From the IMG/VR virus record IMGVR_UViG_3300037567_000988, positions 1 to 25,037 of that record: a stretch of 25,037 nt of DNA; one strand, given 5' to 3'. The stretch's first letter is position 1, and every line of letters starts with the position of its first letter. This document shows positions 4,863 through 24,075 of the stretch, piece after piece. A model generated the notes under the pieces. The model ran no database searches, was not told the DNA's origin, and worked only from the letters and a program-made list of their open reading frames with translations. Origin of the DNA: a virus. Lineage: Duplodnaviria; Caudoviricetes. The position numbers and the translations under genes are program-made.

Positions 4863-7800
4863 CTACATCCTGTGGTGCCCTATTGGGCTTTGAAACATTT
4901 GGTGATTTACTCTTCTCTGGGCCATGGCCATCTGTTGCCGGCGATCTTGAGCTGTACTCCTTGTACCGTAGATACGGTTTGCATTTGATGATCGATGTGT
5001 CCAAACACTGTTAGTCGATCCAAGCGTATCCAATACTAGTGCCTTGTCAAGGCTACCATAATTACCCCTTCTACGTAATCTATTAGTAACTGAAGAACCT
5101 CTTGTCGAACTCATCTTAGCAGTGTCCTCCAGCATTTCAGATAAGTAGCTGTTATGTGGAGCATTTTTTCGTCGCATAAGGATCGGATCTTGGTAATCCG
5201 GCCTGTAACCGGCATCGTTAAATCTTTTCCCAATGAAGGCTGCTTCAGTTGCAGCAGCATTTCCGTAGAAACCCTGTGCTTCTGCATTCTGCATCAAGGA
5301 GGTAGCAGACATCATCGTTGCGTTCTTAGCAATCTTGTCGATTTGCGTAAACGTATTGAAAGTAATTGTCTGCCCTGATGCTGTTGTTATATCCCTATAG
5401 GCTTGGAAGAATGGGGTTCCCCACATACCTCGATCAGCACCTTGCGAGAGCTTATTCGCTCTACTAAACATTTGCTGATCATACATTTCTAAAACGCCCT
5501 TCTTCTTGAAGGGCAGGTATGAAGCCAATCCACGCTTCAGCAGATCAACATTTATATTTCGGCCATCGTCATAAACCATACCAACAGCACGACCATAAGT
5601 TATATTGTTCGGGTCGAAAATGAGTTCGAGGTTGCTCGATCCAGAAAGAATCTGCTGTAAAGCAATTTTACCTGCGTTGGCATACGGCTGAGCTCTGTGA
5701 AAGCCACTACCTCCGGCGTGTTCGGTTTCTGGAGCATCGATACCAGCTAGGCGGAATTTGACAGCTCCTACACCTTTATCAAAACCGAAAAAGCCGTTCA
5801 ATGCACCCGCTACCCCTGCACGTTTAACAACAATTGTATCGGCGTCTTCAGCTTCTGCTCGCCACCTTCCGCTAGATAGATCTATTCTTAGTAAGTTTCG
5901 TCCTCTAAGACCTGCATACGCTTGGGTGTCTAGAACTGTTTCTACTGGTCCATCTATATATTGATGTACTGTCGACACAGCAGCTTTAGTTGAAAATAAG
6001 CTTCGAATACTGCTACTGAAAGAATGAGCATCTCCACCTGAATCTACCCTTAAGCTTCTGAGACCTTTAATGACACTTGTTTCAGGATCGAGATGCTGTG
6101 CGACATACATGAATCGGAGATACTTCTCTCTTTCTGCAAGAAGCTCTTGCTGTTGAAAAACAGCTTGTGTAGCAATTGGACCCTGATAGGGAGAGCCAAA
6201 GTCAGAGAAGTAACCTCGTTTCCTGCCAGCAACTCCACCCTCTTGCATACCGCTAAAGGGCTGAGCTTCTAGCCATCTTTTGTAATCCATAGTATGCAGA
6301 GATGCTGGGCGATCTCGATCTCCACCCCTTTGCCCTCCAGCAAACCCTACTATTCCTAGAGCTGCGGCAGCCAATCCAACTCTAGCTCCCATCCCCCGAG
6401 GAATCGGCAAGTCGGCCAAGCCTCTACGAGCTGCTGCTAACCGTGCAGCACCACCAGGAGGTCTACCCATAGCCTCTCTGGAGAGAAGATTCTGCCAACG
6501 ACCACTTGATTGTAATTGTTTGGCTTCTTGTCGGAACAATGTTTCTGGACGTCTCTCTGCATAGCGGACTGAAGCCTGACGAAGTCTCTCTGCATTTATA
6601 ATTTCTGCTTCATTACCCCGCATCCTGATAGCACCTGACTTCTCTAGGTACCTGTGTAGCCTCGCAGTTTCTTTGTCAAAATCTGCTGCTCCGTATTGTC
6701 CGGTTGACCTCATATACTCAAGTGCAGCTTCTCCACTAAAGAATGGGTTTGTTACTGGTATGTTTATAGGAGCTTTTATTCGGGCACCTTCTCTTGTTAC
6801 TTGTTCGATAGCACCAGCCTTGTAATGGCTAAACTGCCATGTAGCGGGTTTGGGAGTTCGCCCTTCTTGCCCTGCAAGAGTAATTTCTTTTGCAAAGTCC
6901 TCATACATCCTTGTCACTCTCTTGACAAGATTGCCACTCTGGATGGCGGGAGCAAGCTCTTCCTTTAGCTTACCGTATATCATGGCTTCATATAGAAGCC
7001 CACGGCCTGATTTTGCCTGCTCAAGAAACTCCTTGCCTGCAGCACTGCCAATAGATACCTGTCTAAGAGCTTCTGTACGGTCCAAAGTTCCGGTTAGAAC
7101 ACGTTCGGATAGAATATTATCTAAAGCAGCAACGTGAGGCTCTGACATGGAGAGACTCTTCGATACTAAATCCCACCTACCGCCTGTTGCAGCCTGTGTT
7201 GCGTGCTCAAGCCTCCAACTGGATTCTATTCCTAGAGAATAAAGAGGTCCACCCTTCTTCATTACCCCCAGTTCTTGCATGTAAGATTGCTGAGCCTTAA
7301 TAACGTCGATGATATCGCGGACTTCGCCTGTACCTGGGCGGGTGTGTTTGAGGTACGCCTCGTATACCCCTCTCCAGTCACCCGTTCTAGCAGCTAGAGC
7401 CTTTGCTCTCTGTACTTCAACTCCAGTCACATAGAGCATCTCAGAGCCACGCATGCTCGTTGCTGGTAGGATGTCTCTGAGCCCAGTGGCTTGCCGTAGC
7501 TGCCTGTGTAGTTGCTCCTCGTCAATCAATCCCGCAGCGTGAGCGTCTCTTGCAGCCCGCTCTAACAGCGAGATCTGGGCTCCAAATTGCTTTGACTCAA
7601 ACTGCGCGTTTGCCACCCAGATGGTATGCCCTTTTAGTTTCCGCATTAGTGCAGAATCAGGCTGTAACGCTTCCGACATAGCAAGCCGATGGGTTTTGAA
7701 GTTTTTTGCATCTACTCCAAGTTTTTTCACCTGGGCCTGCATGTAGGCATCTTGCTGAGCTAAAGTTTTTACTTTGCCTTCAGCATCAGGGAACCATGGA

Positions 7801-8222
7801 TAAGCCTCTTCTTTTATCATCTTGTAAAGCCAGGTATCATCTGACTTCAGCATCTTCATCAATTCGCTTGGCGATATGTCTTGGGAAAGACGCTCTACTT
7901 TGCCTCTCATCATGAGGACTCGCGCCGTTATAGCATCCTGCCAGCCTAGGGGCTTACCCCTCTTGCCAAGCTGTGCCGCTCTCTCCGCGAGTTCAGGAGA
8001 AGCAGCGAATTTGTCACTATAGCTAGACGTCAGCCCGAGTACATCCGACTGTCGCAAATTTTCCGCCACGGTTAGATGGGGGCGGAGGATAAACTGATCT
8101 AGCTCCCGTGTTCCAAGATTAAGTATAGAGATCTCATGGATCGCAGATATCTCCCGCATCAAGCCAAGAGTTTCTGTATCTGCGATTATGGCTTGTTGTA
8201 GTAGTGAGTGAGTACTTCCCAT
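4863..8222 (-). CDS. Large protein (1119 aa): N-terminal DEDDh/DnaQ-like exonuclease domain plus C-terminal staphylococcal nuclease (SNase/thermonuclease) domain
   Basis: ExoI IIADTETLGL, ExoII-like VANAQFE, ExoIII HVAALD. SNase motifs EDADTI, FRLAGIDAPE, QPYA, YGR, NVDLLKRGLA and RGMWG lie at about 5420-5860. Confidence 0.85.
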   Translation of the reverse strand: MGSTHSLLQQAIIADTETLGLMREISAIHEISILNLGTRELDQFILRPHLTVAENLRQSDVLGLTSSYSDKFAASPELAERAAQLGKRGKPLGWQDAITARVLMMRGKVERLSQDISPSELMKMLKSDDTWLYKMIKEEAYPWFPDAEGKVKTLAQQDAYMQAQVKKLGVDAKNFKTHRLAMSEALQPDSALMRKLKGHTIWVANAQFESKQFGAQISLLERAARDAHAAGLIDEEQLHRQLRQATGLRDILPATSMRGSEMLYVTGVEVQRAKALAARTGDWRGVYEAYLKHTRPGTGEVRDIIDVIKAQQSYMQELGVMKKGGPLYSLGIESSWRLEHATQAATGGRWDLVSKSLSMSEPHVAALDNILSERVLTGTLDRTEALRQVSIGSAAGKEFLEQAKSGRGLLYEAMIYGKLKEELAPAIQSGNLVKRVTRMYEDFAKEITLAGQEGRTPKPATWQFSHYKAGAIEQVTREGARIKAPINIPVTNPFFSGEAALEYMRSTGQYGAADFDKETARLHRYLEKSGAIRMRGNEAEIINAERLRQASVRYAERRPETLFRQEAKQLQSSGRWQNLLSREAMGRPPGGAARLAAARRGLADLPIPRGMGARVGLAAAALGIVGFAGGQRGGDRDRPASLHTMDYKRWLEAQPFSGMQEGGVAGRKRGYFSDFGSPYQGPIATQAVFQQQELLAEREKYLRFMYVAQHLDPETSVIKGLRSLRVDSGGDAHSFSSSIRSLFSTKAAVSTVHQYIDGPVETVLDTQAYAGLRGRNLLRIDLSSGRWRAEAEDADTIVVKRAGVAGALNGFFGFDKGVGAVKFRLAGIDAPETEHAGGSGFHRAQPYANAGKIALQQILSGSSNLELIFDPNNITYGRAVGMVYDDGRNINVDLLKRGLASYLPFKKKGVLEMYDQQMFSRANKLSQGADRGMWGTPFFQAYRDITTASGQTITFNTFTQIDKIAKNATMMSATSLMQNAEAQGFYGNAAATEAAFIGKRFNDAGYRPDYQDPILMRRKNAPHNSYLSEMLEDTAKMSSTRGSSVTNRLRRRGNYGSLDKALVLDTLGSTNSVWTHRSSNANRIYGTRSTAQDRRQQMAMAQRRVNHQMFQSPIGHHRM

Positions 8223-9747: not shown

Positions 9748-9795
9748 GTGGGGTTTTTAGCCCACCCCCCTTTTTTATTTAACGAGCGATTGCTC
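9748..9795 (+). promoter_or_regulatory. Cassette element copy 1 (putative phage promoter)
   Basis: GTGGG/CCCAC hairpin, CCCCTTTTTTATTTAAC-G(9784), then a GAGC-gatt-GCTC hairpin. There is no same-strand gene upstream. Confidence 0.7.
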
Positions 9796-9812
9796 AGAAA
9801 GGGGTAAGCAAC

Positions 9813-9998
9813 ATGAAAACTTATCGCATTACGTTTGAGGACGGAACCTTCTTCCATGGTGAGACATATGGAGAGATGGTTACGGAAATCATCCAGCGGT
9901 ATAGTTTGCTGTTTGTTATCTGGAGCTATGCAGACAAAAAGGCTGGCCACTGGATGATTGATGGCAAGCTGGAGATGGTGCGAAACTATATTCACTAA
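9813..9998 (+). CDS. Small hypothetical protein (61 aa)
   Basis: AAAGGGG SD-like sequence; the ORF fills the space between cassette elements 1 and 2. Confidence 0.8.
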   Translation: MKTYRITFEDGTFFHGETYGEMVTEIIQRYSLLFVIWSYADKKAGHWMIDGKLEMVRNYIH

Positions 9999-10013
9999 GA
10001 GGAAAAGGGAAAG

Positions 10014-10072
10014 CCTTGGCGCATAGCGTCAAGGGCCCTTTTTCTTTTAATGAGCACTCCATTCGTGTGCTT
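10014..10072 (+). promoter_or_regulatory. Cassette element copy 2 (terminator-like hairpin plus putative promoter)
   Basis: CCTTGGCGC/GCGTCAAGG hairpin, CCCTTTTTCTTTTAAT-G(10052), GAGCAC...GTGCTT. Confidence 0.75.
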
Positions 10073-10090
10073 TGAACAAAGGAGAAGACT

Positions 10091-10207
10091 ATGTTTAGGT
10101 ACATATTGTTCTGTATCCTCGTGCCCTACATCATTCTGGAGTGTATCTGCTTCCAGAACTTTGGGACCAGCACACCAGTGTACGACTGGTGCTGTCCCCC
10201 TGAGTAG
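10091..10207 (+). CDS. Small hydrophobic Cys-rich peptide (38 aa, MFRYILFCILVPYIILECICFQNFGTSTPVYDWCCPPE)
   Basis: AAAGGAGA SD before the ATG; stops just before the next cassette hairpin. Translated by hand. Confidence 0.7.
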   Translation: MFRYILFCILVPYIILECICFQNFGTSTPVYDWCCPPE

Positions 10208-10223
10208 GAGCGAGAGAGAGGAA

Positions 10224-10296
10224 GCCCGGTCGCGTGTGCATGCACGTGTACCGGGCCTCTTTTTCTTTAATGAGCACTCCACTTATGAGAGTGCTT
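10224..10296 (+). promoter_or_regulatory. Cassette element copy 3
   Basis: GCCCGGT...ACCGGGC hairpin, CTCTTTTTCTTTAAT-G(10272), GAGCACTC...GAGTGCTT. Confidence 0.75.
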
Positions 10297-10324
10297 TGAA
10301 TTGTTCTCTTGAAAGGAGAATATT

Positions 10325-10627
10325 ATGTTTGAAGGTCTTTTCATTCTTGGCTTGTTGGTCATCGCGATCCTGACCTGTCTTCGATGCGTACGACTTGAGT
10401 GTCGTGCCCTCAAGGCGGAGACGGAGATCGTTGATCTCCAGATCAAGGTCGAGGAGCTCCAGGCAGCACAGCCGTCCCGGGAGGCTCTCATCGTATTGGG
10501 CTTACTGGTTGGCACCTGTGAGGCCGATGGACCGTTCCGAACCCCTAATGGGAGCCCCTTCTGGGCTACGAAGCCTCTGGAGGTCTTCGTCCGGGAGCCG
10601 GATATGAACCTAGTGAAGATCAGCTAG
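10325..10627 (+). CDS. Membrane-anchored coiled-coil protein (100 aa)
   Basis: AAAGGAGA SD; N-terminal hydrophobic helix. Confidence 0.85.
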   Translation: MFEGLFILGLLVIAILTCLRCVRLECRALKAETEIVDLQIKVEELQAAQPSREALIVLGLLVGTCEADGPFRTPNGSPFWATKPLEVFVREPDMNLVKIS

Positions 10628-10652
10628 TCAACTAGCGGTCTAGAGAGAGGGA

Positions 10653-10715
10653 GCCTGGTGTGCGTGTTTAACACGCATGCCAGGCCCTTTTTCTTTTAAC
10701 GAGCAACTTACGCTC
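10653..10715 (+). promoter_or_regulatory. Cassette element copy 4
   Basis: GCCTGGTGTGCGTGT/ACACGCATGCCAGGC hairpin, CCTTTTTCTTTTAAC-G(10701), GAGC...GCTC. Confidence 0.75.
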
Positions 10716-10731
10716 AGAAAGAGAGAAGCTG

Positions 10732-10893
10732 ATGCTGAAGCTGAAGATGTTGTGGAACAGGCTGCAGAGGAACTGGCTTCCTATACTCGTGGTGGTGCTC
10801 TTGGTAGCAGTCACTGGGAGCATCTGGAAGACTCACCATGTCCATGTGGAGCGTGGTCTCTATGACTGTGATACCAGTTATCACAACCACTAG
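10732..10893 (+). CDS. Small single-pass membrane protein (53 aa, MLKLKMLWNRLQRNWLPILVVVLLVAVTGSIW...HNH)
   Basis: Purine-rich RBS (AAAGAGAGAAG), a TM segment, and a fit between elements 4 and 5. Translated by hand. Confidence 0.75.
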   Translation: MLKLKMLWNRLQRNWLPILVVVLLVAVTGSIWKTHHVHVERGLYDCDTSYHNH

Positions 10894-10914
10894 CAGATAG
10901 GAGAGACAGAGGAG

Positions 10915-10968
10915 AAAGGGTCTGGACGAAAGTCCGGGCCCTTTTTCTTTTAACGAGCAATCATGCTC
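10915..10968 (+). promoter_or_regulatory. Cassette element copy 5
   Basis: AAAGGGTCTGGAC-GAAA-GTCCGGGCCCTTT hairpin, CCCTTTTTCTTTTAAC-G(10955), GAGCA-atca-TGCTC. Confidence 0.75.
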
Positions 10969-10983
10969 TGAAGGAGGTGTCTA

Positions 10984-11292
10984 ATGGCTAACCTACAACT
11001 CGTGGCGCTCCAGCGGGAGATCGCTGAGGATATGTGCGTATGGGCTTTGCTCATGCGCCAGATTCTCAGCATCCTCAGCGAGGGCGTTGAGACCGACATG
11101 ATCCACACGAACAAAATTCAAGTCTTCGACCGAGATGGTCGCCGGCTTCAGCTTTGGTCGTGTGGAACAATCTATTATCGGGTCGATAAGACCGAGAATA
11201 GGGTCCATGTCCCTGACTCGTTTCGTGATAGCGCGAGAGCGTTGCTCACGCAGGCGAACGAGTGGGCGATCCGAGTGAACCTGGGGATCTAG
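10984..11292 (+). CDS. Hypothetical protein (102 aa)
   Basis: AAGGAGGT SD; bounded by cassette elements. Confidence 0.85.
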   Translation: MANLQLVALQREIAEDMCVWALLMRQILSILSEGVETDMIHTNKIQVFDRDGRRLQLWSCGTIYYRVDKTENRVHVPDSFRDSARALLTQANEWAIRVNLGI

Positions 11293-11311
11293 GTTCACAT
11301 CGAGGAGGCAA

Positions 11312-11389
11312 CCCGGTACACGTAGCAATACGTGTGCCGGGCCCTTTTCTTTTAACGAGCTCTCTTCGGGGATTATCCCGGAGCAGCTC
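11312..11389 (+). promoter_or_regulatory. Cassette element copy 6
   Basis: CCCGGTACACGTA-GCAA-TACGTGTGCCGGG hairpin, CCCTTTTCTTTTAAC-G(11357), GAGCT...AGCTC. Confidence 0.75.
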
Positions 11390-11404
11390 TGGAGGTACAG
11401 TCAA

Positions 11405-11845
11405 ATGACTGCACTAGAACACTTGGTGTTCCTCGTTCTCGTCAGCATCCTGCAGGCGGGTGGAACTATCGAGACCAATGGTCCCGAAATCTTCCACACG
11501 GTCAACACTGGTGGTCCGAGTGGCGCGGTAAAGCATTACTGCGTTCACTCTGGCAACCAGTATGCTCAGCAGGGTGTCAACAGAGCAATGGTTGATACTG
11601 GTTCTCGGTACAATGACGTTCGTTACGTCATGGTACTTGACGGAGCTGATGTCGGCTACTGCCTGGAAGCTGAGAAGCCAGGAGCACTCAACCGTGATGG
11701 TGACACATGGCGCTTCTTCGATGACAAGGAGCAGCTCATGATCGCCACAATGGTGGAGCAGAGTGGATTCGGTACCTGGGATATCCCGTGGGAGACCGGT
11801 TACCACCTCACCCTGCCCCTACCAACTCCACCTACGGGGGAGTAG
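11405..11845 (+). CDS. Hypothetical protein with N-terminal hydrophobic/signal segment (146 aa)
   Basis: GGAGGT SD; bounded by cassette elements. Confidence 0.85.
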   Translation: MTALEHLVFLVLVSILQAGGTIETNGPEIFHTVNTGGPSGAVKHYCVHSGNQYAQQGVNRAMVDTGSRYNDVRYVMVLDGADVGYCLEAEKPGALNRDGDTWRFFDDKEQLMIATMVEQSGFGTWDIPWETGYHLTLPLPTPPTGE

Positions 11846-11852
11846 AACCTTC

Positions 11853-11952
11853 GACAAGCTTGGGGGTGTACGTTGCAATATGGCCTACTGAAGGCTGAGC
11901 AGCGTGCACTCCCGGGTTGTCCTCCTTTTTCTTTTAATGAGTAACTATGCTC
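11853..11952 (+). promoter_or_regulatory. Cassette element copy 7
   Basis: Long imperfect hairpin GACAA...TTGTC, CCTTTTTCTTTTAAT-G(11939), GAGTA-acta-TGCTC. Confidence 0.75.
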
Positions 11953-11966
11953 TGAAAGGACAAACC

Positions 11967-12194
11967 ATGAAAGTTGTGAAAGACCTTGCTTTGTACATCC
12001 TGATGGCCTGCAGTATGATCTGCTGTATCGGCATCGGACACTGCGGTGCCTCCAACGGACTGACAACCGAGCAGGTCTCGGAATGTCAGCTGCTGCTGTT
12101 GGAGAAGGAAGTCTATGAGGCTCAGCGGAAGAAGGCGATGAGGTGGTCTGAGGACGCTGCCTACCACATGAAGAGGGCGATGCAGCAGCAGTGA
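11967..12194 (+). CDS. Membrane-anchored protein (75 aa, MKVVKDLALYILMACSMICCIGIG...)
   Basis: An AAAGGA SD places the start at 11967 rather than 11904; hydrophobic N-terminus. Confidence 0.8.
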   Translation: MKVVKDLALYILMACSMICCIGIGHCGASNGLTTEQVSECQLLLLEKEVYEAQRKKAMRWSEDAAYHMKRAMQQQ

Positions 12195-12203
12195 CTGTGA
12201 TTG

Positions 12204-12267
12204 GGGCCGGCGCATTTCGATGCGTCGGCCCTCCCTTTTTATTTAATGGTCTCCATGAAGTGAGACT
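12204..12267 (+). promoter_or_regulatory. Cassette element copy 8
   Basis: GGGCCGGCGCAT-TTCG-ATGCGTCGGCCC hairpin, CCCTTTTTATTTAAT-G(12248), GGTCTC...GAGACT. Confidence 0.75.
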
Positions 12268-12279
12268 AGAGAGGAGGTC

Positions 12280-12483
12280 ATGATGACCTTTATACAATTG
12301 TCGGTCCTCGTGGTGGCGGCGGTTAATGTCGCTATCTGCTCGGTGTTGTTATATGTTGTGTGGGAGCAGCGAAAGCTGTCTCAGCGCATCAGCCGAGTCA
12401 ATGGGCGAGTCGATCGCAACTGGCGTGATTATATGTCAGAAGCGGACGAGGATGCTCAGATCACAAACGGCAGCATCTGCTGA
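12280..12483 (+). CDS. Single-pass membrane protein (67 aa)
   Basis: AGGAGGT SD; N-terminal TM segment followed by a basic amphipathic helix. Confidence 0.85.
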   Translation: MMTFIQLSVLVVAAVNVAICSVLLYVVWEQRKLSQRISRVNGRVDRNWRDYMSEADEDAQITNGSIC

Positions 12484-12500
12484 TTGTTGATTGAGGTGTT

Positions 12501-12579
12501 GGTCCCCGGCGTGTACGTTTTTACGTGCACGCCTGGGGCCCACTTTCTTTTTCTTTAACGGTTCTCATGTGGACGAACT
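12501..12579 (+). promoter_or_regulatory. Cassette element copy 9 (precedes a non-coding unit)
   Basis: GGTCCCCGGCGTGTACGT-TTTT-ACGTGCACGCCTGGGGCC hairpin, CTTTTTCTTTAAC-G(12560), GGTTC...GAACT. No SD or ORF follows. Confidence 0.75.
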
Positions 12580-13780
12580 GAAAACGGCGAAAGCTGTATA
12601 TAACCACATGTAGTAGAGTCGAAAGGCTTTGGTTCTATACCTCTGTACGAGGTCCGAAAGGGGCAAGTACAGGGGCGAATATGTAGTTGTTAGAGGTCGA
12701 GACATGTTCTCGATATCTGAGGTCAACCTTAATAGGAAAGTTGTATAACTCCTGAACAGGCCAACTCAGAGAAAGACGTAACTGATACCTCGTAACGCCT
12801 ACTCAGCTTAGGTTGAGTAGCCGGTTGGTCGTAGCTGCCAGATGCGACCATACCGGGCCCCGATGCTCTCTGGGAGAGCTTAAGGGAGGTGTGACTTTGG
12901 GTAACCTTGCGGGACTACTGTAAAAGGTAGTTGGAGCTTGGAGACCCTTGGCGGAAAGTAGGAGTGGGTCCGAAGCCCTTCTCATGCAAACTACTGGAAG
13001 CCAGGGTGTTCTCCAAGAAACCCTGCCCCTCGTAGCTGTCAGAAATACGAGATCACATCTTCAGGGAGTACCATCCTCTGGTTAACTTACTTACCAGATG
13101 GACCGGTCTCGGGAAGGGGTGCCGCCTTAGTAGCGAATTGTTTCGTGTAACTCTGGCTGAGTCTGCAGTGGAGATTGGTGTTAGCCGATCAAAACTGCAG
13201 ACAAGGCTGGGGTCTATCACTTACTAAGTTCTAAGGCCAGGTAGAGAGGCGAGACGCTTGCCAGACTTACCTGACGGTACCTAGACCGAAAATCTAGGTT
13301 GAGGTTGACTGTAACCTTATCCAACAAAACAGTCGTCAGCGAGTTTCGACTTGCTGACTATGGCACTGTCCCGGTGTCATGAAAGTTCGTAGATATGGGA
13401 CGCTGCTCCACACAGCGTAGGTGTCAAAGCCGGGTTCATCTCCACGGTTATTAGCATCTGGTTGCAAGTGCTTTTTGGTACTTGCATTAAGGGCGTTTCC
13501 ACCTGCAGATAAGGTGGTGAGTAGATCTCCCCTACAAGAATGAAGCACGGAAGGACGAATCTGGTCATTTCGTGTGGATTCAACCTGCCTAGGGAGGCCC
13601 CAACCTCTGGGCGCTATGTAAGAGACTTGGTACATCTCATCATAGCAAGTGAGGCCTTAAGAGTTCTAGTGGACTCTTGCTCCTTAAGTGGAGCGTTAAA
13701 GAGCGGAAAGGTATGTGCCGTTCTTGAAATATAAATGCAATCCACCTTTGTCTGGGGGGCCCTTCGGGGTCCCCCAGGCA
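12560..13780 (+). ncRNA. Putative large (~1.2 kb) highly structured non-coding RNA, family not recognised
   Basis: No credible ORF. Continuous hairpins with GAAA/UUCG loops and G-U pairs that work on the + strand. Long-range helices 12721-12732/13299-13310 and 12885-12894/13053-13062. Starts at a cassette element and ends at a strong UUCG hairpin. Confidence 0.75.
13749..13780 (+). terminator. Strong GC hairpin without a U-tract (3' boundary or processing/stabilising stem)
   Basis: TGTCTGGGGGGCCC-TTCG-GGGTCCCCCAGGCA. Confidence 0.5.
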
Positions 13781-13884
13781 CCTTAGCCTGTCGTGGGATC
13801 TGATATGGGATCAGATTCATTTGATCTTGTATGAGATCTCACGGCAGGTCCTACCAACCAATGAAAGAAAAGGAGAATGAAGTT

Positions 13885-14793
13885 ATGTACTTCATCAAGC
13901 GAATGATACTGTGGGTGCTCTCAATTCTGGGAGTGGCCTTCTTCATGGTCTGCACTCTGATCTCGACGGTTCTTGGTAACAAGAACTCGACGGCGAAGTG
14001 TGGGAACTGGATGCGGGGACAGTGGTACCTCTTCATCGAGGAGCCGACAGTGGTCCTCCACTGGCTCTCGGGCTGGCGGAGTGGCCTCGTGTCTCGCTTC
14101 AACGGCTGGAGGGCTGCTCGTGCCGAGAAGAAGGCTGCAAAGCTGAAGCTGAAGGCTGAGGCTGCAGAGGCTGCAAAGCTGAAGGCAGACAAGGCAAAGG
14201 AGGCGAAGAAGGCCAAGGGACATTGGTTCCAGCGCTTCGTCTGCTGGAGCGGCTTGCTGTTCCTCGATGCGCTTGAGGCGAGAAATCGTCGAGTTCTCTC
14301 GGACTATGAGTTCGTGGGAATGCGCATGCCGGATGGCGAGTACATTCCGGTGCAGCCTGGTCAGATGCCAGAGGCGGTGTCTTCGGACATTGCTGATGGT
14401 GACGAGGGTGGCGACTGCGATGAGGAGTTCCTCATCGAGACCGAGCCGGTGGATCCCTTGGGGGACACCGACGAGGTGCTGGCAGTCGTGACTCTGCACG
14501 ATGAGGATGAGGGGCCTTTCGGGCTCCCCACCGAGACGGACGAGATGCGGACGATGCTTGAGCAGGTAGCTCAGGTCAGTGAGTTTCGACTCGCTGGCAT
14601 GAGTCTGACCTGGCAGGAGCAGCTGAAGCTCTGGTCTCACATCTGCAGAGACCGGAACAAGAGCGATCGGAGTAAGCTCGCCGTTCAGGAAGCTCTGACG
14701 AAGGAGGTCGAGAGCTGGACTGGCGACGAGGGTAGTGCTCAGCAGTCTATCCGGGCTAACCTGAGCATTGGTCGCTACCCCGAGTTCCCGTGA
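13885..14793 (+). CDS. Membrane-anchored protein with Lys/Ala-rich linker and acidic domain (~302 aa)
   Basis: An AGGAG SD 9 nt before ATG 13885 favours this start over 13831. N-terminal TM segment, AEKKAAKLK-type repeats and a D/E-rich middle. Confidence 0.8.
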   Translation: MYFIKRMILWVLSILGVAFFMVCTLISTVLGNKNSTAKCGNWMRGQWYLFIEEPTVVLHWLSGWRSGLVSRFNGWRAARAEKKAAKLKLKAEAAEAAKLKADKAKEAKKAKGHWFQRFVCWSGLLFLDALEARNRRVLSDYEFVGMRMPDGEYIPVQPGQMPEAVSSDIADGDEGGDCDEEFLIETEPVDPLGDTDEVLAVVTLHDEDEGPFGLPTETDEMRTMLEQVAQVSEFRLAGMSLTWQEQLKLWSHICRDRNKSDRSKLAVQEALTKEVESWTGDEGSAQQSIRANLSIGRYPEFP

Positions 14794-14990
14794 GTTGCGG
14801 GGACTGTGGTGCTGAGACTTACCTTCGGAAGGAAGGTAAGGATTGGTACCGGGTGTGTCGAGGCTGTGGAGCGAAAGCGAAGCAGTCTCGACACAATCCT
14901 CCATCGGTGATTGAGTTCACTGGTGGAGGTGTTCATGGTGCTTGCCTGCCTTGCGGTTGCGCCATTGAGCAGTGTGAATGCAAGGAATAG
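14790..14990 (+). CDS. Small Cys-rich, Zn-ribbon-like protein (66 aa)
   Basis: GTGA overlap with the upstream stop; CxxC...CxxC...CxxCxC...CxC. Confidence 0.7.
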   Translation: MSCGDCGAETYLRKEGKDWYRVCRGCGAKAKQSRHNPPSVIEFTGGGVHGACLPCGCAIEQCECKE

Positions 14991-15010
14991 AGGGGGCTAG
15001 ATAGTCCCTG

Positions 15011-15095
15011 GTGTGTGGGAGCGGGGCCTTCGGGCCCTGCTTCCCCACATCCCCTTCTTTTTATTTAGTGAACTTGTGCGCTCAAGTATGAGTTC
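15011..15095 (+). promoter_or_regulatory. Cassette element copy 10 (TTTAGT variant)
   Basis: GGGAGCGGGGCC-TTCG-GGCCCTGCTTCC hairpin, CTTTTTATTTAGT-G(15070), GAACTTGTGC...GTATGAGTTC. Confidence 0.7.
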
Positions 15096-15119
15096 TTACC
15101 AAGAAGGGAGGTTCCTATC

Positions 15120-15479
15120 ATGGGACTTCTTATGATGAGTGTTATCCTGGGCCTTGCGGTGGCTTGCCACCTGATGCAAGCTCGTCTCAAGCGGCTGGAG
15201 AGTCGCTTCATGCAGAGCGAGCTCAACGTCAATAAATACCGGCGAGAGCTCACTGCGGGTGTTCGGCAGAACGGTGTGAGCATCGGCAAGCTGACCGAGC
15301 GTCACAGCGAAGCTATTCTGCGGCTGGGTGAAGATGTCTTGATGCTGGAGAAACTGATGACTGGGTTGGCACCCGCTTCGGCTTCGGCGTTGACTATCGA
15401 GATCGGTGACGCCGATTGCGATCACCTCCTGGAGAGTTCCACCCTCACGGTGGAGATCGACGACACAGAGCGCCAGTAG
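15120..15479 (+). CDS. Membrane-anchored coiled-coil protein (119 aa)
   Basis: GGGAGGT SD; N-terminal TM segment. Confidence 0.85.
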   Translation: MGLLMMSVILGLAVACHLMQARLKRLESRFMQSELNVNKYRRELTAGVRQNGVSIGKLTERHSEAILRLGEDVLMLEKLMTGLAPASASALTIEIGDADCDHLLESSTLTVEIDDTERQ

Positions 15480-15505
15480 GTAACTGCTACAGGCACAACA
15501 GGAAC

Positions 15506-15562
15506 GGGGGGCTCCTTCGGGAGTCCCCCCACTTCCTTTTTCTTTAACGAGCAATTTTGCTC
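15506..15562 (+). promoter_or_regulatory. Cassette element copy 11
   Basis: GGGGGGCTCC-TTCG-GGAGTCCCCC hairpin, CCTTTTTCTTTAAC-G(15549), GAGCA...TGCTC. Confidence 0.75.
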
Positions 15563-15580
15563 AGAAGACAAGGAGAAGTT

Positions 15581-15823
15581 ATGCGTTCGTTTTGGACTAA
15601 GTCTAGTTTCCCAATCTTGACGATTATGGCATTCCTGTTGCCAATGGTCACCTTCGTTGCATTGATCTCGATCTTCGGATCGGGTTATCTGAACTTCGAA
15701 GAGTACGTCGGTGAGCCGTGGGGTGAGGTCTGCACGACAGTGTTCTTGATCTTACTGTTCGGTAGCGGTGGCCTGCTTGCCAGGAAGGTCGGCTATTGGG
15801 AGGTGGATATTTACGACAACTAG
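15581..15823 (+). CDS. Two-TM small membrane protein (80 aa)
   Basis: An AAGGAGA SD places the start at 15581; two hydrophobic segments. Confidence 0.8.
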   Translation: MRSFWTKSSFPILTIMAFLLPMVTFVALISIFGSGYLNFEEYVGEPWGEVCTTVFLILLFGSGGLLARKVGYWEVDIYDN

Positions 15824-15844
15824 CCTCGGCTAGGTTCCGCCTGT

Positions 15845-15901
15845 GGGGGCCCCGAGTCACACTTCGGTGTGGCTCGGGGTCTCCCCCTTTTTCTTTTAAT
15901 G
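15845..15901 (+). promoter_or_regulatory. Cassette element copy 12
   Basis: GGGGGCCCCGAGTCACAC-TTCG-GTGTGGCTCGGGGTCTCC hairpin, CCCCTTTTTCTTTTAAT-G(15901). Confidence 0.75.
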
Positions 15902-15928
15902 AATACCAATCTCTCGAAAGGAGAAATT

Positions 15929-16252
15929 ATGAAGATATATCGTTACTTAGAGGTCACCGGGCGCAAGGGGCTGATCGGGCGGTTCGCGCTCCATAGGCGA
16001 GCGGGCGAGCACATCCTAGGGCCCTTCCGGGATGAGGCGATTGCTAGTGGGTCCACTCTTGAGGAGTGGATTGACGATGCCGAGGTCGATGAGGAGTGGG
16101 CGCTGTTCCAGTGGGCTGGTCGCGTCGGGCTCTCGCAAGTGATTCCGGCCCGGTGCCCGCAGCGAGTACCGGCGTTCAAGATCACCGCCGTCCTCGACGT
16201 TGAAGAACCGAAGAGTCGCACCGTCATGCTGAAGCGGATCTACGCAAAGTGA
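15929..16252 (+). CDS. Hypothetical protein (107 aa, MKIYRYLEV...)
   Basis: An AAAGGAGA SD places the start at 15929. Confidence 0.8.
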   Translation: MKIYRYLEVTGRKGLIGRFALHRRAGEHILGPFRDEAIASGSTLEEWIDDAEVDEEWALFQWAGRVGLSQVIPARCPQRVPAFKITAVLDVEEPKSRTVMLKRIYAK

Positions 16253-16258
16253 AAACCA

Positions 16259-16305
16259 GGGAGCCCCTTTCGGGGGGCTCCCGCAACCCCCTTTTTCTTT
16301 TAATG
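16259..16305 (+). promoter_or_regulatory. Cassette element copy 13 (precedes non-coding unit A)
   Basis: GGGAGCCCCT-TTCG-GGGGGCTCCC hairpin, CCCCCTTTTTCTTTTAAT-G(16305). Confidence 0.75.
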
Positions 16306-16490
16306 GCCCGTACTAACTGAAGGAGTATGTGGAAGCTGACCTGGCGTTCTTGTTCGCAAGAGTGTTAACAAAGCTACGGTCCAGGAGAATAGGTATACGG
16401 AGTAGTGGAAGTGGTACAACCCTGCCAGGGGGCAGCGTCTTCGGAGGGTAATGAATTGATGTCAGGGAAAGGATCCCGACCCTGAGAGAC
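16305..16490 (+). ncRNA. Putative small structured RNA, copy A
   Basis: Occupies its own cassette. Shares 5' GGCYCGTAC, GAAGCWGACC, a 46-nt core (16413-16458, 43/46 identical) and GAAAGnnTCCCGAC with copy B. Confidence 0.6.
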
Positions 16491-16523
16491 CACCCCCCTC
16501 TTTTTATTTAACGAATACTATTC
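16462..16523 (+). promoter_or_regulatory. Cassette element copy 14
   Basis: TCAGGG...CCCTGA stem, CCCCCCTCTTTTTATTTAAC-G(16513), GAAT-act-ATTC. Confidence 0.7.
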
Positions 16524-16540
16524 TCTTGAAAGGAGAAATT

Positions 16541-16762
16541 ATGCGTATCTATCGAGTAATTCTTGCAGCAACTTCAAGCACCGGCGAGCAGGGCACTTTC
16601 ATGCAGCTTGCCCGAGGGGACAAGGAGCTGACAAGGTTCAAGGACAAGTACGGAGCGGAGTTGGTGAGTACCAGGGAACTCAACCATGGCGAAGGCTACA
16701 GTTGCGATACCTGCCAGGAGAGCGTTGTCTACCCCCACAGGTGCCTGTATCCTTGCTGGTAA
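16541..16762 (+). CDS. Small protein with C-terminal Cys/His cluster (73 aa, MRIYRVILAA...)
   Basis: AAAGGAGA SD; CxxC...HxC motif. Confidence 0.8.
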   Translation: MRIYRVILAATSSTGEQGTFMQLARGDKELTRFKDKYGAELVSTRELNHGEGYSCDTCQESVVYPHRCLYPCW

Positions 16763-16777
16763 ACATCCTGCTAATCA

Positions 16778-16833
16778 GGGAGCCCCTTTCGGGGGGCTCC
16801 CGCAACCCCCTTTTTATTTAATGAACCTTATTC
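16778..16833 (+). promoter_or_regulatory. Cassette element copy 15
   Basis: Same hairpin as copy 13, CCCCCTTTTTATTTAAT-G(16823). Confidence 0.75.
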
Positions 16834-16851
16834 TCTTGAAAGGAGAACAAG

Positions 16852-17154
16852 ATGATTGATGAAGAGACACTTCTCTCTGGTGGCGGTAATGCAGATCCAA
16901 ATCTGGATCACACAACTGACTTTCAGGTAATGAACACGGGTGCTGGCTGGTACGTGGGTACTGGCTACATCAGCTGTGGAAACTACGGTAAGGGCTGTAC
17001 TAGCTCTGACTGTGATCCCGAGCGGAGCCCTCCCGTGCAGCCGAACTCGCGAGAGACCGGCTACTTCGCTAACAGAGAGGAAGCAGAAGCTGCGCTTGTG
17101 GAGTTTCAGAAGGAAGACGAGATCTTCGATCCCAGCAAGGCAAACGCTCGCTGA
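16852..17154 (+). CDS. Hypothetical phage protein (100 aa)
   Basis: AAAGGAGA SD. The QVMNTGAGWYVGT...SRETGYF...EAEAAL pattern recalls a widespread small phage/mobile-element protein of unknown function (from memory, not searched). Confidence 0.85.
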   Translation: MIDEETLLSGGGNADPNLDHTTDFQVMNTGAGWYVGTGYISCGNYGKGCTSSDCDPERSPPVQPNSRETGYFANREEAEAALVEFQKEDEIFDPSKANAR

Positions 17155-17165
17155 ACCAAAAACTA

Positions 17166-17212
17166 GGGGGCCCTTCGGGGCCCCCGCAACCCCCTCCTTT
17201 TTATTTTTAATG
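17166..17212 (+). promoter_or_regulatory. Cassette element copy 16 (precedes non-coding unit B)
   Basis: GGGGGCCC-TTCG-GGGCCCCC hairpin, CCTTTTTATTTTTAAT-G(17212). Confidence 0.75.
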
Positions 17213-17400
17213 GCTCGTACCATGAATGAGAGGAATGCTGAAGCAGACCGAATGCTTGTTGGCTAGAGCGACAACATTTTTCGGTATGGAGTACATGACC
17301 ATAGAAGCGGAGATCTTTGCATGCGGTACAACCCTGCCTGGGGGCAGCGTCTTCCGAGGGTAACGAATTGGTAATGGTGAAAGCGTCCCGACTCGGAACC
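17212..17400 (+). ncRNA. Putative small structured RNA, copy B
   Basis: Core 17325-17370 is 43/46 identical to 16413-16458. GTACCATG...CATGCGGTAC closing stem. Confidence 0.6.
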
Positions 17401-17483
17401 CCCTACCCCCTTTTTATTTAACGACGATTGTAGTCTAGCCAATAGAGGAGAGACTACCAGGCGAAAGCTGAAAGGAAATCGTT
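17400..17483 (+). promoter_or_regulatory. Cassette element copy 17 with a structured leader enclosing the RBS
   Basis: CCCCCTTTTTATTTAAC-G(17423). GACGATT pairs with AATCGTT immediately before the ATG; internal GTAGTCT/AGACTAC stem and GC-GAAA-GC loop. Confidence 0.7.
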
Positions 17484-17651
17484 ATGTCTAATGTAGAGTT
17501 CCAGGTGCTGATGATCAACAACCTCAGAAAGAACCCCCCGAGCAACAACGACTTGGCGGCGAAGGGGGATCTGGTGAAGCCGACTTCGAAGACGAAGCGT
17601 CAGGTCGACTTTAAGGATCAGAATGGAAACGCAGGATTCCGCGTGTTCTAG
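17484..17651 (+). CDS. Small basic protein (55 aa, MSNVEFQVLMINNLRKNPPS...GFRVF)
   Basis: AAAGGA SD; codon usage like neighbouring genes; bounded by cassette elements. Translated by hand. Confidence 0.75.
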   Translation: MSNVEFQVLMINNLRKNPPSNNDLAAKGDLVKPTSKTKRQVDFKDQNGNAGFRVF

Positions 17652-17674
17652 CTTGATCTGGACGTCTTCGTGAA

Positions 17675-17730
17675 GGTCAGGGTTCCGTGCTTACGCACGG
17701 GGCCCTGGCCCTCTTTCTTTTTATTTAACG
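17675..17730 (+). promoter_or_regulatory. Cassette element copy 18 (upstream of the RNA polymerase gene)
   Basis: GGTCAGGGTTCCGTGC-TTAC-GCACGGGGCCCTGGCC hairpin, CTTTCTTTTTATTTAAC-G(17730). Confidence 0.75.
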
Positions 17731-17818
17731 CTAACGCAAACCAACGACATTGGATGGGGAAAGATCCCCGTCTAGTGAAAATCAGGCCAAATAACCATTC
17801 TCGTGAAAGGAGAACAAA

Positions 17819-20800
17819 ATGGCCCCTTTGAATGAAATGATGAGAGATCTGACCAAGAACAGGATCCAGGACATGAAGGAGATGAGGAAGCTGCTGGAGA
17901 CGACGGAGCTCGGCAAGCTGCTGGAGCGGGAGGTGCTCGTGCCGAACCACAAGTTCGACCCCAGTAACCCGACCGACAACAAGTGGAACGTCATGATCCA
18001 CAGGCTCACCGGGAACGAGATCATCAAGTCCCTGGAGCACTACATCGCCGCGTTCGACCTGCTCCTGACTCGGGAGACCAGGAAGGGTGCGATCAAGGAG
18101 CTGAATCGGATGAAAGACAACTTCGAGAAGAAGCTGGTTCTGGCTGTTGAGGCCAAGATCCAGCACCGAGAAGAGTTGCGTGCAAAGGCGCAGCAGAAGA
18201 GTTGGCAGGATGCTGCTGCTGGCTACATGACCAAGTATCCGGTCATCGTCATGTACCACGAAGAGACGAAGAAGAAGCTCAGGATCAGGTATGACCTGGC
18301 TGTGGGCTTGCAGGGCTTGCTTGCTCAGATGGTCAAGCACTGGCAGGGGAATGCTGTCAAGAAGACTGAGGCTGGAGAGGAGCTCGACAAGTTCGAGGCG
18401 ACTGCGATGGGAGTGAAGGTTCCCGTTCTGCACCTGAAGGATCAGACGGAAGGAGATCAGGATCTCGCTGGCCTCATGTCTGCATTCCGCAAGCAGGGGT
18501 GGGTACCAGTCAAGGGTAAGCATCTGCTGGACAAGTCGCTCTACGCGATGCTGACGAAGCTGTTCCCAAGGGCTGTCGACATGCGTGCCTACATCAGCAG
18601 CTTCATGAGTCCGCTGAAGGCTGGTGGTCTCTGGATTGACGCAAGTGTCAAGCTCACGACTATCACTTCGTACAACAAGGATGGACAGACAATCCCCGCT
18701 GGCTGTGATGGCTCGGGACGAATTCACTCGAAGCACCCGCTCCTGCAGTACTTGAAGGGGTGGAACAGCAAGGACTGTCCTGCTACTCAGTTCAGAGGGG
18801 TTAACTTCAGCACAGGCCTCTTCGCCAAGGGTGTCTTCGTCGTGGACGATCGATGTCTTGACGATGACGGCAATCCGGACATCTGGGTTGATTGGGCTCA
18901 GATCAAGGGTCTGCAGAAGGCTGAAGCCAAGGAGTGCATCGGCAAGAACATTCACCGGCGGGACGTTATGACGATTGGCATCATCGATGTCTTCCGTCGC
19001 CACAACCCGAAGATGAACTTCAGCTTCCAGAGTCTGCAGATCATGGAGAACGTTCCCAGTACTCGCGCCTTGGCTGAGCGCTGGGTTGATGAGAGCCTTG
19101 ATGCGTTCGTTACCAACGGTGGTCCACTTGGGATGTTGGAGAACATCGCTGCCAATGATCCGCAGATCGATCTCATCCTGAGGCTCAAGGACCAGCTCAA
19201 GGAGAAGCTCGGACTGGATGTCACCACTCCTGAGGGAATTGCTGCGATCCCGTTCGTGCACAACCGGCTTGAGGACAATCTGGGTCGTATGCGTTACCAC
19301 AATGCTCAGGGTGCTGGAGTCAAGGAGCTGACCAAGGTGCTTGTTATCGACAATGGCTTGGAGTCGGGAACGTGTGCGATCAGGAGTACCGGCGGGAAGT
19401 ATCCTATCGGAAGTCTCGTGGCACTGGTGAGGCCGCCAATTGTGACTCCTCACAACCAGGTGGTCTTGAAGATCGTGGAACCCTTGACGCATATGAGGGT
19501 TCGTGGACAGGTTCCTCTGTGTGTGATTTTCATGACTCTGCTCGACACCTTGATCATGTTTGCCGACGATGACGGAGACATCGCTTCTGTCTGCGATGAC
19601 AAGGAGCTGATCGAGAACTTGCAGAAGAACAAGATCGACTTCGGTTTCGGTCAGGATGCGTTGTATCGTATCGAGCCTGAGACCTGGGAGGGTGATCCGA
19701 AGGCCAAGATCTCCAGCAGCTCACTTGTTGGAATGGTGATGCTTGAGGGTGATGGTCGTGGTCCTGTCGGGCTCGTGTGCGTCCTGAAGGCTGCTGCAAT
19801 TGCGGAGGAAGTGGACATGCTTCCGCTGGCGATGGCAGTAATTGAGCAGTGTGCTATCGATGCTGCAAAGCACAGTACCATGTATCCAGATCCTCGCATG
19901 TTGGTGCAGAGGCGCAACTGGGAGAAGGATAGCGAGGGCTGGTGGAAGCCAAAGAGTGGTACTGGGCTGTCCCGTGAAGACATGGGCACGTACAGGGGCT
20001 ACCAGGGTAACAGCCAGGTGGAGTCTTGGATGGATGGTGAGCACATCAGCACCAATCTGCTCCAGCAGTTCGTCAGGGATCTGTGTGGTGGGCGCATGCT
20101 GAAGGATCAGCTGTCTTGGAGGGTCAAGTCCAAGAGGCTTACCTCGGAGACCGATAGCGAGTACCCGGTCAAGGCCAAGTATGAGAATCTCGTGCATCAC
20201 ACTGCAAGGTACGCTACCGAGGAGTGGAACAAGATGTACGAGGGGACAGAGGCGGGTATCGAGTTCTCTGCACAGGATCTGATTCCGAAGCTGCTCTCCA
20301 TGCAGGTCACACCTCTCGACAAGCAGACCTACAAGAGGACGCTGCACAGGAGTTCTGGTATGCAGGCATACGGCGTTGAGCTGAAGAAGATTCTGGCTCT
20401 GGGCTATGAGCGTGAGGAGCGTAGGCTTAAGATCGATGCCGTCTACACTGCTCTGCTCAACAGCTTGCGTAAGCTGAGTGTCGGAGAGCTGGTCCAGATC
20501 TGGGTTACTGAGTGGAACCTGGCGCTGAACACCAAGCATGAGAACCGGGTCAAGGGCCACATCAACAGGGCTTACCGAGCCGTTCTCTGGGAGGGTTCGC
20601 CTGTACTCAAGGCGCTTGGACTGGAGAGTAGCTCTAGGTGTGAGTTCATGGGTACCGAGCGCATGCTGAAGACCAAGGAGTGGATTAACAACCGCGTTCT
20701 GGCTTTGCGTCAGGATGGTGTACCGGCTACTGCGTTTGATGTTGCTCGGGACTCCATCCTCAAGTCGAAGAAGCACGAGGAAGAGACTGGTGTTCGTCTG

Positions 20801-23415: not shown

Positions 23416-23553
23416 GATATCTTTCAACCTCTAGTTCGTGGATGTCCTTTCCCAGAGCTAGAACTGGTACGGTAGCCTCTCGGCTCCCTCCCCCTCCTCC
23501 CCATTGGGACGAGGGGCTACCGCTACCTCCGCTTCATGGTCTTATAGTTTAAC

Positions 23554-24075
23554 AAGTATACCTATCCGCGAATAGGTATCGGTAAAACACTTACTACTGA
23601 AGGTCGACCCACAAGACGAACCTACTTAATGGTCCCAGAACTGGGTGTCACTGCTAGAGTTGAAAGGCAGTGCGAGTCATGTGTCCTTAGTAAGAGTCGT
23701 AGGTACAAGTCCTACTAAGATCACCCTTTTAAGTTTGGGGAGAGAGAAGTTATAGGGAGGCCGGTGAGGCGCCGAGCGCTTCAAGACAGATCCTATAGCT
23801 GCTAGTTTGCAAGCTGGCAAAGGCTCCGGATTAAGTCAAGCCCGAACTCTCTCTCCATTTAATTCGTGAAAAGAGCAGGTACCGGTAATATCGGGGCAAG
23901 TGTAAGACACTCCCGGTAAATTTGCTCCCAGGTGCACTTACAGTGAGATGGGTTCGATTCCCGTCACGGGCTACCTCGTGGAGAGTCTGGTGATCTATTG
24001 TAAGCGATTGAAACTTTGTGGCCATCCTAGAGGCTGCTTAGGGAAGATAAGGGGGCGGGCATAGGACCCGCCCCA
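23554..24075 (+). ncRNA. Putative structured non-coding RNA(s) with T-loop/tRNA-like domains
   Basis: No credible ORF. Multibranch stems GGGTG(23643)/CACCC(23726) and GGAGAGAG(23739)/CTCTCTCC(23856). T-arm ATGGG-TTCGATT-CCCGT (23948-23964). Ends at a hairpin plus T-tract. Boundaries are approximate. Confidence 0.55.

Follow-up and report, generated by a model that had tools for sequence, protein, structure and literature searches.

A 25,037-nt stretch of a tailed-virus genome (Duplodnaviria; Caudoviricetes; IMG/VR record IMGVR_UViG_3300037567_000988; hereafter, the window) contains two related units, unit 1 (16305–16500) and unit 2 (17212–17410), each of which occupies one of the 18 slots in a row of small, same-strand cassettes upstream of a gene for a predicted RNA polymerase. 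Both units span one cassette-boundary motif to the next and open with GGYYCGTAC, at the G that closes the motif. All of the other short cassettes in the array carry small open reading frames (ORFs), and the two units are probably a lineage-specific pair of small non-coding RNAs. A first-pass annotation made from the letters of the window had recognized the repeat and placed its motifs correctly, but ended the units at 16490 and 17400; it had also read them as a small RNA family, possibly guide-like, of which the first part remains the best reading and the second found no support. The virus record is about 19–20% complete and includes a terminase, and the virus was detected in marine, seawater and vent DNA runs (24 rows, 20 studies; 5 possibly the source).

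Homology and strain variation of the units

Units 1 and 2 are homologous end to end, in every segment. They are paralogous by blastn within the 25-kb record (E 2e-16), and against dinucleotide shuffles the similarity is strongest in a 46-nt core (43/46 identical, as first counted; z 12.6, with none of 1,000 shuffles as good), followed by the 5' part (28/40; z 5.4), the middle (43/79; z 3.9, again none of 1,000) and the tail (26/43; z 3.2, 2 of 1,000). The block GAAGCWGACC, the core and GAAAGnnTCCCGAC are common to both units, the two middles differ in length by a 6-nt indel, and the cores form a direct repeat 912 bp apart.

Variation among strains was followed in four natural copies, with L005 and L006 as close unit-2 alleles, and in Logan contigs of runs X13, X17, X22 and X23; a JGI metagenome scan returned two close unit-2 alleles. 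The 5' part plus middle is nearly fixed (111/113 and 109/113), as is the unit 2 core (46/46 in L005 and 45/46 in L006), and the tail of unit 2 (17371–17410) is the most variable segment (32/40). Whatever the ancestry of the units, the nucleotide sequence of the core is maintained, by RNA-level selection or by gene conversion.

These comparisons bear directly on the idea of a guide RNA with a constant scaffold and a programmable middle, to which the size and the constant-core layout had pointed. The first-pass annotation had described the middle as variable, but the two middles are diverged relatives and therefore not swappable guides, and each is nearly invariant among strains. In the known part of the virus genome, neither middle has a match beyond chance. 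In addition, no reverse transcriptase (RT), IS110 or TnpB was found in the four complete distant relatives (4/4), in G016, in the 28 ORFs of the window or in 8 further ORFs, with the virus's own genome about 20% complete and no genome-wide search for the IscB and Cas families. A programmable guide is extremely improbable, given the homology and fixity of the middles, the lack of a visible target in the known sequence and the absence of these genes from the four complete relatives.

The units are uncatalogued and so far confined to one virus lineage. At the gathering threshold, no Rfam 15 family matches the whole window or the units, and when unit 1, unit 2 and L006 were each scanned on their own (E up to 10), the outcome was three weak, unrelated matches (no more than 15.9 bits). 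These scans of the units alone returned nothing like the FMN riboswitch T-loop, rRNA, glmS, T-box, HDV or twister cores, and suspected resemblances to them were therefore discarded. A whalefall-1 match at 17061 lies inside an ORF and below gathering. The covariance-model search that had been proposed for finding a wider family likewise ended at this virus, with models of the core (R1; 15 records) and the full unit (R2; 15 records) of related phages detecting the same virus only. The best outside match (14.9 bits; G010, L089 1501–1556) covers only the tail hairpin, opposite to the polymerase strand in a distant relative, and is probably due to chance. Six DNA patterns searched against IMG/VR yielded this virus and chance matches only; the 5' pattern hit 47 loci, 44 of them unrelated (many belonging to one unrelated protein family) and 3 from this virus, and another candidate, L034, was set aside as lying, by eye, inside an ORF. 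Against cultured phages and plasmids, no blastn match fell below E 7; ARAGORN found no tRNA or transfer-messenger RNA (tmRNA), and the T-loop word is absent from both units. A literature search returned no description of this element, and neither the core motif nor the contig number has a match in the searchable part of the supplement of PMC10690425, which lists candidate structured RNAs in viruses.

Coding potential and predicted folds

Both units contain short open frames (Table 1), and one alternative is that they are, or recently were, paralogous genes for proteins of about 41 residues ending GTTLPGGSVFxG, with unit 1 and some unit-2 alleles now decaying and the cores kept alike by gene conversion. 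This we consider unlikely. The distance from the ribosome-site word to the start is 1, 3 and 0 nt in the units, in contrast to 5–8 nt in 12 of the 15 neighbouring ORF cassettes (4, 3 and 1 nt in the other three). In X13 (depth 19) and X22 (depth 4), which come from two studies and share the change 17268 G>A, a single extra T after 17276 breaks the 42-codon frame of unit 2. Eight of the 12 changes in the 40-codon frame of unit 1 are non-synonymous (neutral expectation 73%), three of them inside the otherwise invariant shared peptide (P>L, G>R and G>S), and a 13-codon frame of unit 1 acquires a stop among strains. Conserved blocks also lie outside both frames, before the start and past the stop codon; in unit 1, the core and the shared ATG..GAAG block do not keep the same phase; and within the core, 9 of the 10 fourfold-degenerate sites are identical between the paralogues (p 0.023 at a 55% background). 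The unit-2 peptide of 42 residues has no relative among 5.8 billion proteins and, against 1.84 billion representatives, a single 24-residue match in an unrelated 1518-residue repeat protein; the unit-1 peptide, scanned against Pfam only, has no match there. The non-coding reading rests on strain variation and missing translation signals, rather than on covariation or transcripts.

Several pairings are shared by the copies. The GTAC/GTAC, CTGCC/GGCAG and GAAG/CTTC helices of the first-pass annotation are possible in all four natural copies, but its ACCCT/AGGGT stem overlaps CTGCC/GGCAG by two bases (16422–16423), so full formation of one excludes that of the other. The four copies allow two folds: a local fold A, consisting of P1 (GTACY/RGTAC), the P2 hairpin, ACC/GGT with CTGCC/GGCAG and a GAAG/CTTC pseudoknot; and a long-range fold B, from RNAalifold, with the purine-rich 5' part and the conserved ATG as partners of the core. 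Thirty single-base strain changes were mapped onto them (excluding indels, the boundary change at 17211, the clustered tail differences of L005 and L006, and loose-end letters). In fold A, 24 of the 30 are unpaired (paired share 41%, p 0.014), 4 keep a pair and 2 break one; the two breaking changes co-occur in L006 and could re-pair in a shifted register. Changes in the core cluster in the hairpin loop at 16426–16428, which favours fold A, and in the helices designated beforehand by the first-pass annotation (P1 and core) three of three changes retain the pair, which is no more than suggestive. An apparent compensatory pair between the W of GAAGCWGACC and a base of the core-hairpin loop was not counted, because it is based on two paralogues only, and because X13, and apparently X22, disrupt its 3-bp helix.

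A number of observations weigh against the non-coding reading. Both copies retain an open frame (40 and 42 codons) that runs to the same TAA, and from the middle on the two agree in phase: the first-pass annotation had placed the conserved blocks in different reading frames, which is true of the 5' blocks only, with the middle blocks, core and stop codon sharing one phase in both copies. Five of the eight single changes in unit 2 are synonymous (p 0.02 at a neutral share of 0.23; 0.11 at 0.35), the indel between the paralogue middles is 6 nt and the indels of X23 cancel out. The coding test itself is weak, because real ORFs of this phage are only about 40–45% synonymous (10/25 and 29/64 codon changes in the polymerase). 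Minimum-energy folds are no better than those of shuffled sequences (z +0.70 for unit 1 and +0.96 for unit 2), whereas a large leader in the same window folds at z −2 to −3.9 in most windows. Fold B accommodates the strain changes about equally well (5 kept, 2 broken), and constrained fold A lies 13–16 kcal/mol above the free minimum with its pseudoknot unscored. Only the P1 and core helices were set beforehand, part of fold A having been chosen with the variants in view; for this reason, and because the changes are mostly transitions, which keep a pair about half the time, the p-value for fold A is generous. No clear compensatory pair or double-sided change occurs in the core among the four natural copies. 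Finally, unit 1 of run X22 holds two unit-2 alleles, and part of the core identity could be explained by gene conversion. For the protein-gene alternative, the open and co-phased frames, the synonymous share, the 6-nt indel and the unremarkable folding, together with the ORFs of every other short cassette, are its favourable evidence. The counter-case anticipated by the first-pass annotation, a conserved frame ending GTTLPGGSVFxG-stop, departs from what was found in the frameshift and in the non-synonymous changes inside the peptide, although the data come closer to it than that annotation had supposed.

The weak folding also agrees with the shared core acting as DNA, as a recombination, origin or protein-binding site with any RNA incidental, as does the near-identity of 46 bp in direct repeat. 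Junctions in strain contigs lie at the boundary motifs and not at the core, however, the changes tend to keep G·U-type pairs and each unit fills a whole cassette slot; a DNA site is accordingly very unlikely.

Table 1. Positions of the two units, their parts and the surrounding features of the window
Feature	Position	Strand	Remarks
GC-rich hairpin ending the upstream cassette, terminator-like half of the boundary	16259..16282	+	Repeat family D7
T-tract and AATG boundary motif, likely promoter or processing site	16292..16305	+	Final G is the likely first base of unit 1
Unit 1, candidate small non-coding RNA	16305..16500	+	
Predicted P1 5' strand of unit 1	16310..16314	+	Partner 16413–16417; strain change 16413 G>A turns U·G into U-A
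Conserved GAAGCWGACC block of unit 1	16332..16341	+	GAAG possible partner CTTC 16439–16442; ACC possible partner GGT 16378–16380; no covariation
P2 of unit 1, 11-bp hairpin with UUCG loop	16342..16367	+	Strain change 16343 G>A keeps the pair
40-codon open frame of unit 1, likely not a gene	16329..16451	+	GTG start 3 nt past ribosome-site word
46-nt conserved core of unit 1	16413..16458	+	P1 3' strand, ACC/GGT, CTGCC/GGCAG hairpin, invariant unpaired stretches
3' tail of unit 1, hairpin TCAGGG/CCCTGA holding conserved GAAAG..TCCCGAC, then C-run before the next T-tract	16459..16500	+	Not scored as intrinsic terminator
Next boundary motif, closing unit 1	16501..16513	+	
GC-rich hairpin ending the cassette upstream of unit 2	17163..17185	+	Repeat family D10
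Boundary motif ahead of unit 2	17198..17212	+	AACG variant in run X23
Unit 2, candidate small non-coding RNA	17212..17410	+	
Predicted P1 5' strand of unit 2	17217..17221	+	Partner 17325–17329
42-codon open frame of unit 2	17235..17363	+	ATG directly past ribosome-site word; +1 T after 17276 in X13 and X22 is a frameshift
P2 of unit 2, ACCGAA/TTCGGT base and U-rich bulge	17247..17285	+	Apical hairpin re-registers among strains
46-nt conserved core of unit 2	17325..17370	+	
3' tail of unit 2 with GAAAG..TCCCGAC	17371..17410	+	
Next boundary motif, closing unit 2	17411..17423	+	
Array of 18 boundary-delimited cassettes	9771..17730	+	Most hold one small ORF with 5' leader hairpin and ribosome site
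Predicted single-chain two-barrel RNA polymerase, 1052 residues	17819..20977	+	Behind boundary motif 17718–17730

Array setting and possible functions

The boundary between cassettes consists of a hairpin, a T-tract and AAYG. A loose pattern finds all 18 copies of the array on the plus strand (19 matches in total, including one stray at 2590, and none on the minus strand), and the strict form occurs 9 times against 0.03 expected. The search for a sigma-70 consensus promoter in the repeat gave one site, on the minus strand, against 1.4 expected in 15000–17900. The T-tract and AAYG motif is a putative promoter. The hairpin that ends the cassette upstream of unit 1 is terminator-like; the ends of the units themselves were not scored as ordinary terminators. 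Upstream neighbours of the units differ in L005, L006 and run X17, with junctions at the boundary motif, and therefore each unit moves whole; the downstream neighbour of unit 2 is constant in the window, in L005 and L006 and in the runs that span the junction. That neighbouring cassette (17423–17717) has a structured 61-nt leader and a 55-residue ORF. Most of the changes seen between strains in this ORF are non-synonymous (4 of 5 codons in one comparison, 12 of 14 in another), so it is either fast-evolving or not coding.

The polymerase was modelled from nine sequences (pLDDT 74; a single-sequence model, at pLDDT 35, was unusable) and resembles QDE-1, RDR2 and the single-chain polymerases of Thermus phages (best E 3e-11). 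The protein itself has no match in Pfam or PHROG, and two of its nine homologues match Pfam RdRP weakly. One relative of the protein, P0003, is 71% identical to it. The boundary is also present on the polymerase strand in 8 of 14 related loci (6 distinct viruses, polymerase identity about 30%), and the polymerase marks a clade of 130–185-kb phages that share the T-tract and AAYG boundary.

As a cassette array, the region is most similar to the promoter-early stem-loop (PeSL) cassettes in the hyperplastic regions of T4-type phages, which (PMC2839356; PMC4122927) likewise combine a repeated hairpin-plus-start boundary between small, same-strand accessory cassettes with cassette exchange at the repeats (here, neighbours differ at boundaries in L005, L006 and the Logan contigs). 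It differs in lacking a sigma-70 consensus, its boundary of hairpin, T-tract and AAYG being shared with relatives that encode the same polymerase, and in the likely content of two slots, RNA in place of an ORF; neither 'noncoding' nor 'non-coding' appears in the main text of PMC2839356. What is new here is probably the RNA cargo in a PeSL-like array with a non-sigma-70 boundary. The Thermus phage P23-45 (PMC10770324) has AT-rich pre-early promoters upstream of a single-chain polymerase gene; in the window, an AT-rich motif lies before the small genes and before the polymerase gene, and the fold of the predicted polymerase is akin to that of the P23-45 type. YonO of SP-beta (PMC5467207) is also a single-chain two-barrel RNA polymerase. 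No virion polymerase is seen in the sequenced fifth of this genome.

What is left once the guide reading above and the Csr-type and type III antitoxin readings below are set aside is a stand-alone accessory-array unit with long invariant, mostly unpaired stretches and drifting peripheral stems. Such a pattern is typical of a binding or catalytic surface. Our tentative preference, drawn by analogy and short of probable, is that the units are folded RNAs of about 195 nt that act as protein-binding decoys. They would be transcribed from the T-tract and AAYG motif, probably by a phage polymerase; P1 would close a 5' domain of hairpins, followed by a compact core built of two short helices and perhaps tied to GAAG by a pseudoknot; and the near-invariant core, with the short invariant blocks, might form one binding surface. 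This surface could titrate a host defence or regulatory RNA-binding protein early in infection, and a duplicate unit might raise the dose or broaden the specificity.

Known RNA decoys offer partial parallels. The units fall in the size class of the protein-sequestering RNAs of the CsrB/RsmY/RsmZ and 6S types and would share their decoy logic. The former carry GGA motifs in loops and the latter adopt a rod-with-bubble fold. Neither unit has such a fold or an Rfam match. GGA is not enriched (8 against 5.9 expected, reached by 168 of 1,000 shuffles, and 4 against 5.3, reached by 876 of 1,000), so that a Csr-type sponge was rejected. A ToxI repeat is about one fifth of the unit length. Type III antitoxin mimicry fails in that the units have no tandem short repeats (none in 16200–17500), and there is also no Rfam antitoxin match and no known toxin partner. 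Pseudo-ToxI of phage PhiTE (PMC3475682) is nevertheless similar, as a phage-encoded non-coding RNA in more than one copy, with proposed mimicry and a possible pseudoknot. Phage RNA mimics of an antitoxin (PMC3475682) are a precedent for a decoy, and this precedent and the array setting are why a decoy is preferred. The invariance of unpaired bases at the sequence level and the lack of a target within the known part of the virus genome also speak for it.

The size of the units, their own cassettes and the 3' hairpin before a U-tract would also suit small RNAs acting in trans, which would use the core's invariant unpaired bases to pair with host mRNA or rRNA, with the invariant single-stranded stretches as possible seeds. 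However, a 46-nt invariant block with internal helices exceeds a typical seed, and antisense matches to the known part of the virus genome, at 10 and 9 nt, are no longer than those of shuffles (means of 10.4 and 10.7), leaving base pairing improbable. We judge similarly improbable a cis-acting switch, in which the core's G-runs, by pairing either locally or with the C-run that precedes the U-tract, would govern read-through into the following cassettes, polymerase gene included. Consistent with a switch, core-to-tail pairing has a probability of 0.6–0.7 in both copies, two alternative folds exist, the unit ends are not scored as ordinary terminators and the downstream neighbour of unit 2 does not change; against it, every downstream cassette has its own boundary motif, the tail is the segment that varies most and no riboswitch family matches.

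The compact core, its many invariant unpaired bases, the possible GAAG/CTTC pseudoknot and the varying peripheral stems would also fit a new class of small self-cleaving or processing ribozyme. A ribozyme had been among the suggestions of the first-pass annotation, but no Rfam ribozyme model, including those of hammerhead, twister and HDV-like ribozymes, matches at E up to 10, and hammerhead consensus words are absent from the units. No substrate is obvious either, because each cassette already has its own ends, and a ribozyme is therefore very improbable. Beyond the decoy reading, a bolder and rather unlikely proposal is that the core, its GAAG partner and the GAAAG..CCCGAC tail form a compact RNA fold of a new type that has a biochemical activity of its own, either catalytic or directed at binding a host immune or signalling component, and that is carried as a swappable early 'gene' of a polymerase-encoding marine phage clade, and duplicated and diversifying as a protein family does, alongside larger uncatalogued RNAs.

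Larger RNA-like elements and implications

Other parts of this virus also appear RNA-like. From 12560 to 13880, beginning at a boundary motif, about 1.3 kb lack a good plus-strand ORF, and 5 of the 7 windows tested in 12560–13954 have a folding z of −2.3 to −3.9, with no Rfam match. ORF-poor leaders (about 560–1,330 nt) precede an ORF of 128–389 residues in one cassette each of L010, L018, L020, L023 and L027 (that of L020 includes a small upstream cassette), and the word CTGACGNACCT is common to the window, L010 and L023; the 12560–13880 region is a candidate large non-coding RNA family of the phage clade. Further downstream, about 500 nt at 23471–23975 (L009 15653–16157) have ends that pair as GGTAGCC/GGCTACC and a canonical T-arm at about 23947–23965, just before the 3' strand, and are tmRNA- or tRNA-like, with no match by ARAGORN or Rfam; in the related phage L017, a tmRNA lies downstream of the polymerase gene. 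Beyond the right end of the window, L009 19600–21400 holds about 1.8 kb with no ORF of at least 80 residues and a hairpin-rich first half, possibly a further RNA or an origin. Elsewhere, 4863–8222 on the minus strand, near the terminase, encodes a 1119-residue protein with a staphylococcal-nuclease domain at residues 822–934. The larger, ORF-free and better-folding elements of this virus may be worth more follow-up than the units.

The weight of the finding is limited: so far the family is restricted to a single virus lineage, and neither a function nor a host is assigned to it. The paralogue pair with its invariant core is nevertheless a ready test object that can be synthesized at 200 nt. 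Work on phage accessory arrays looks for anti-defence and host-takeover proteins and passes over slots that lack a good ORF; if the units are RNAs, then such arrays also shuffle and duplicate RNA genes.

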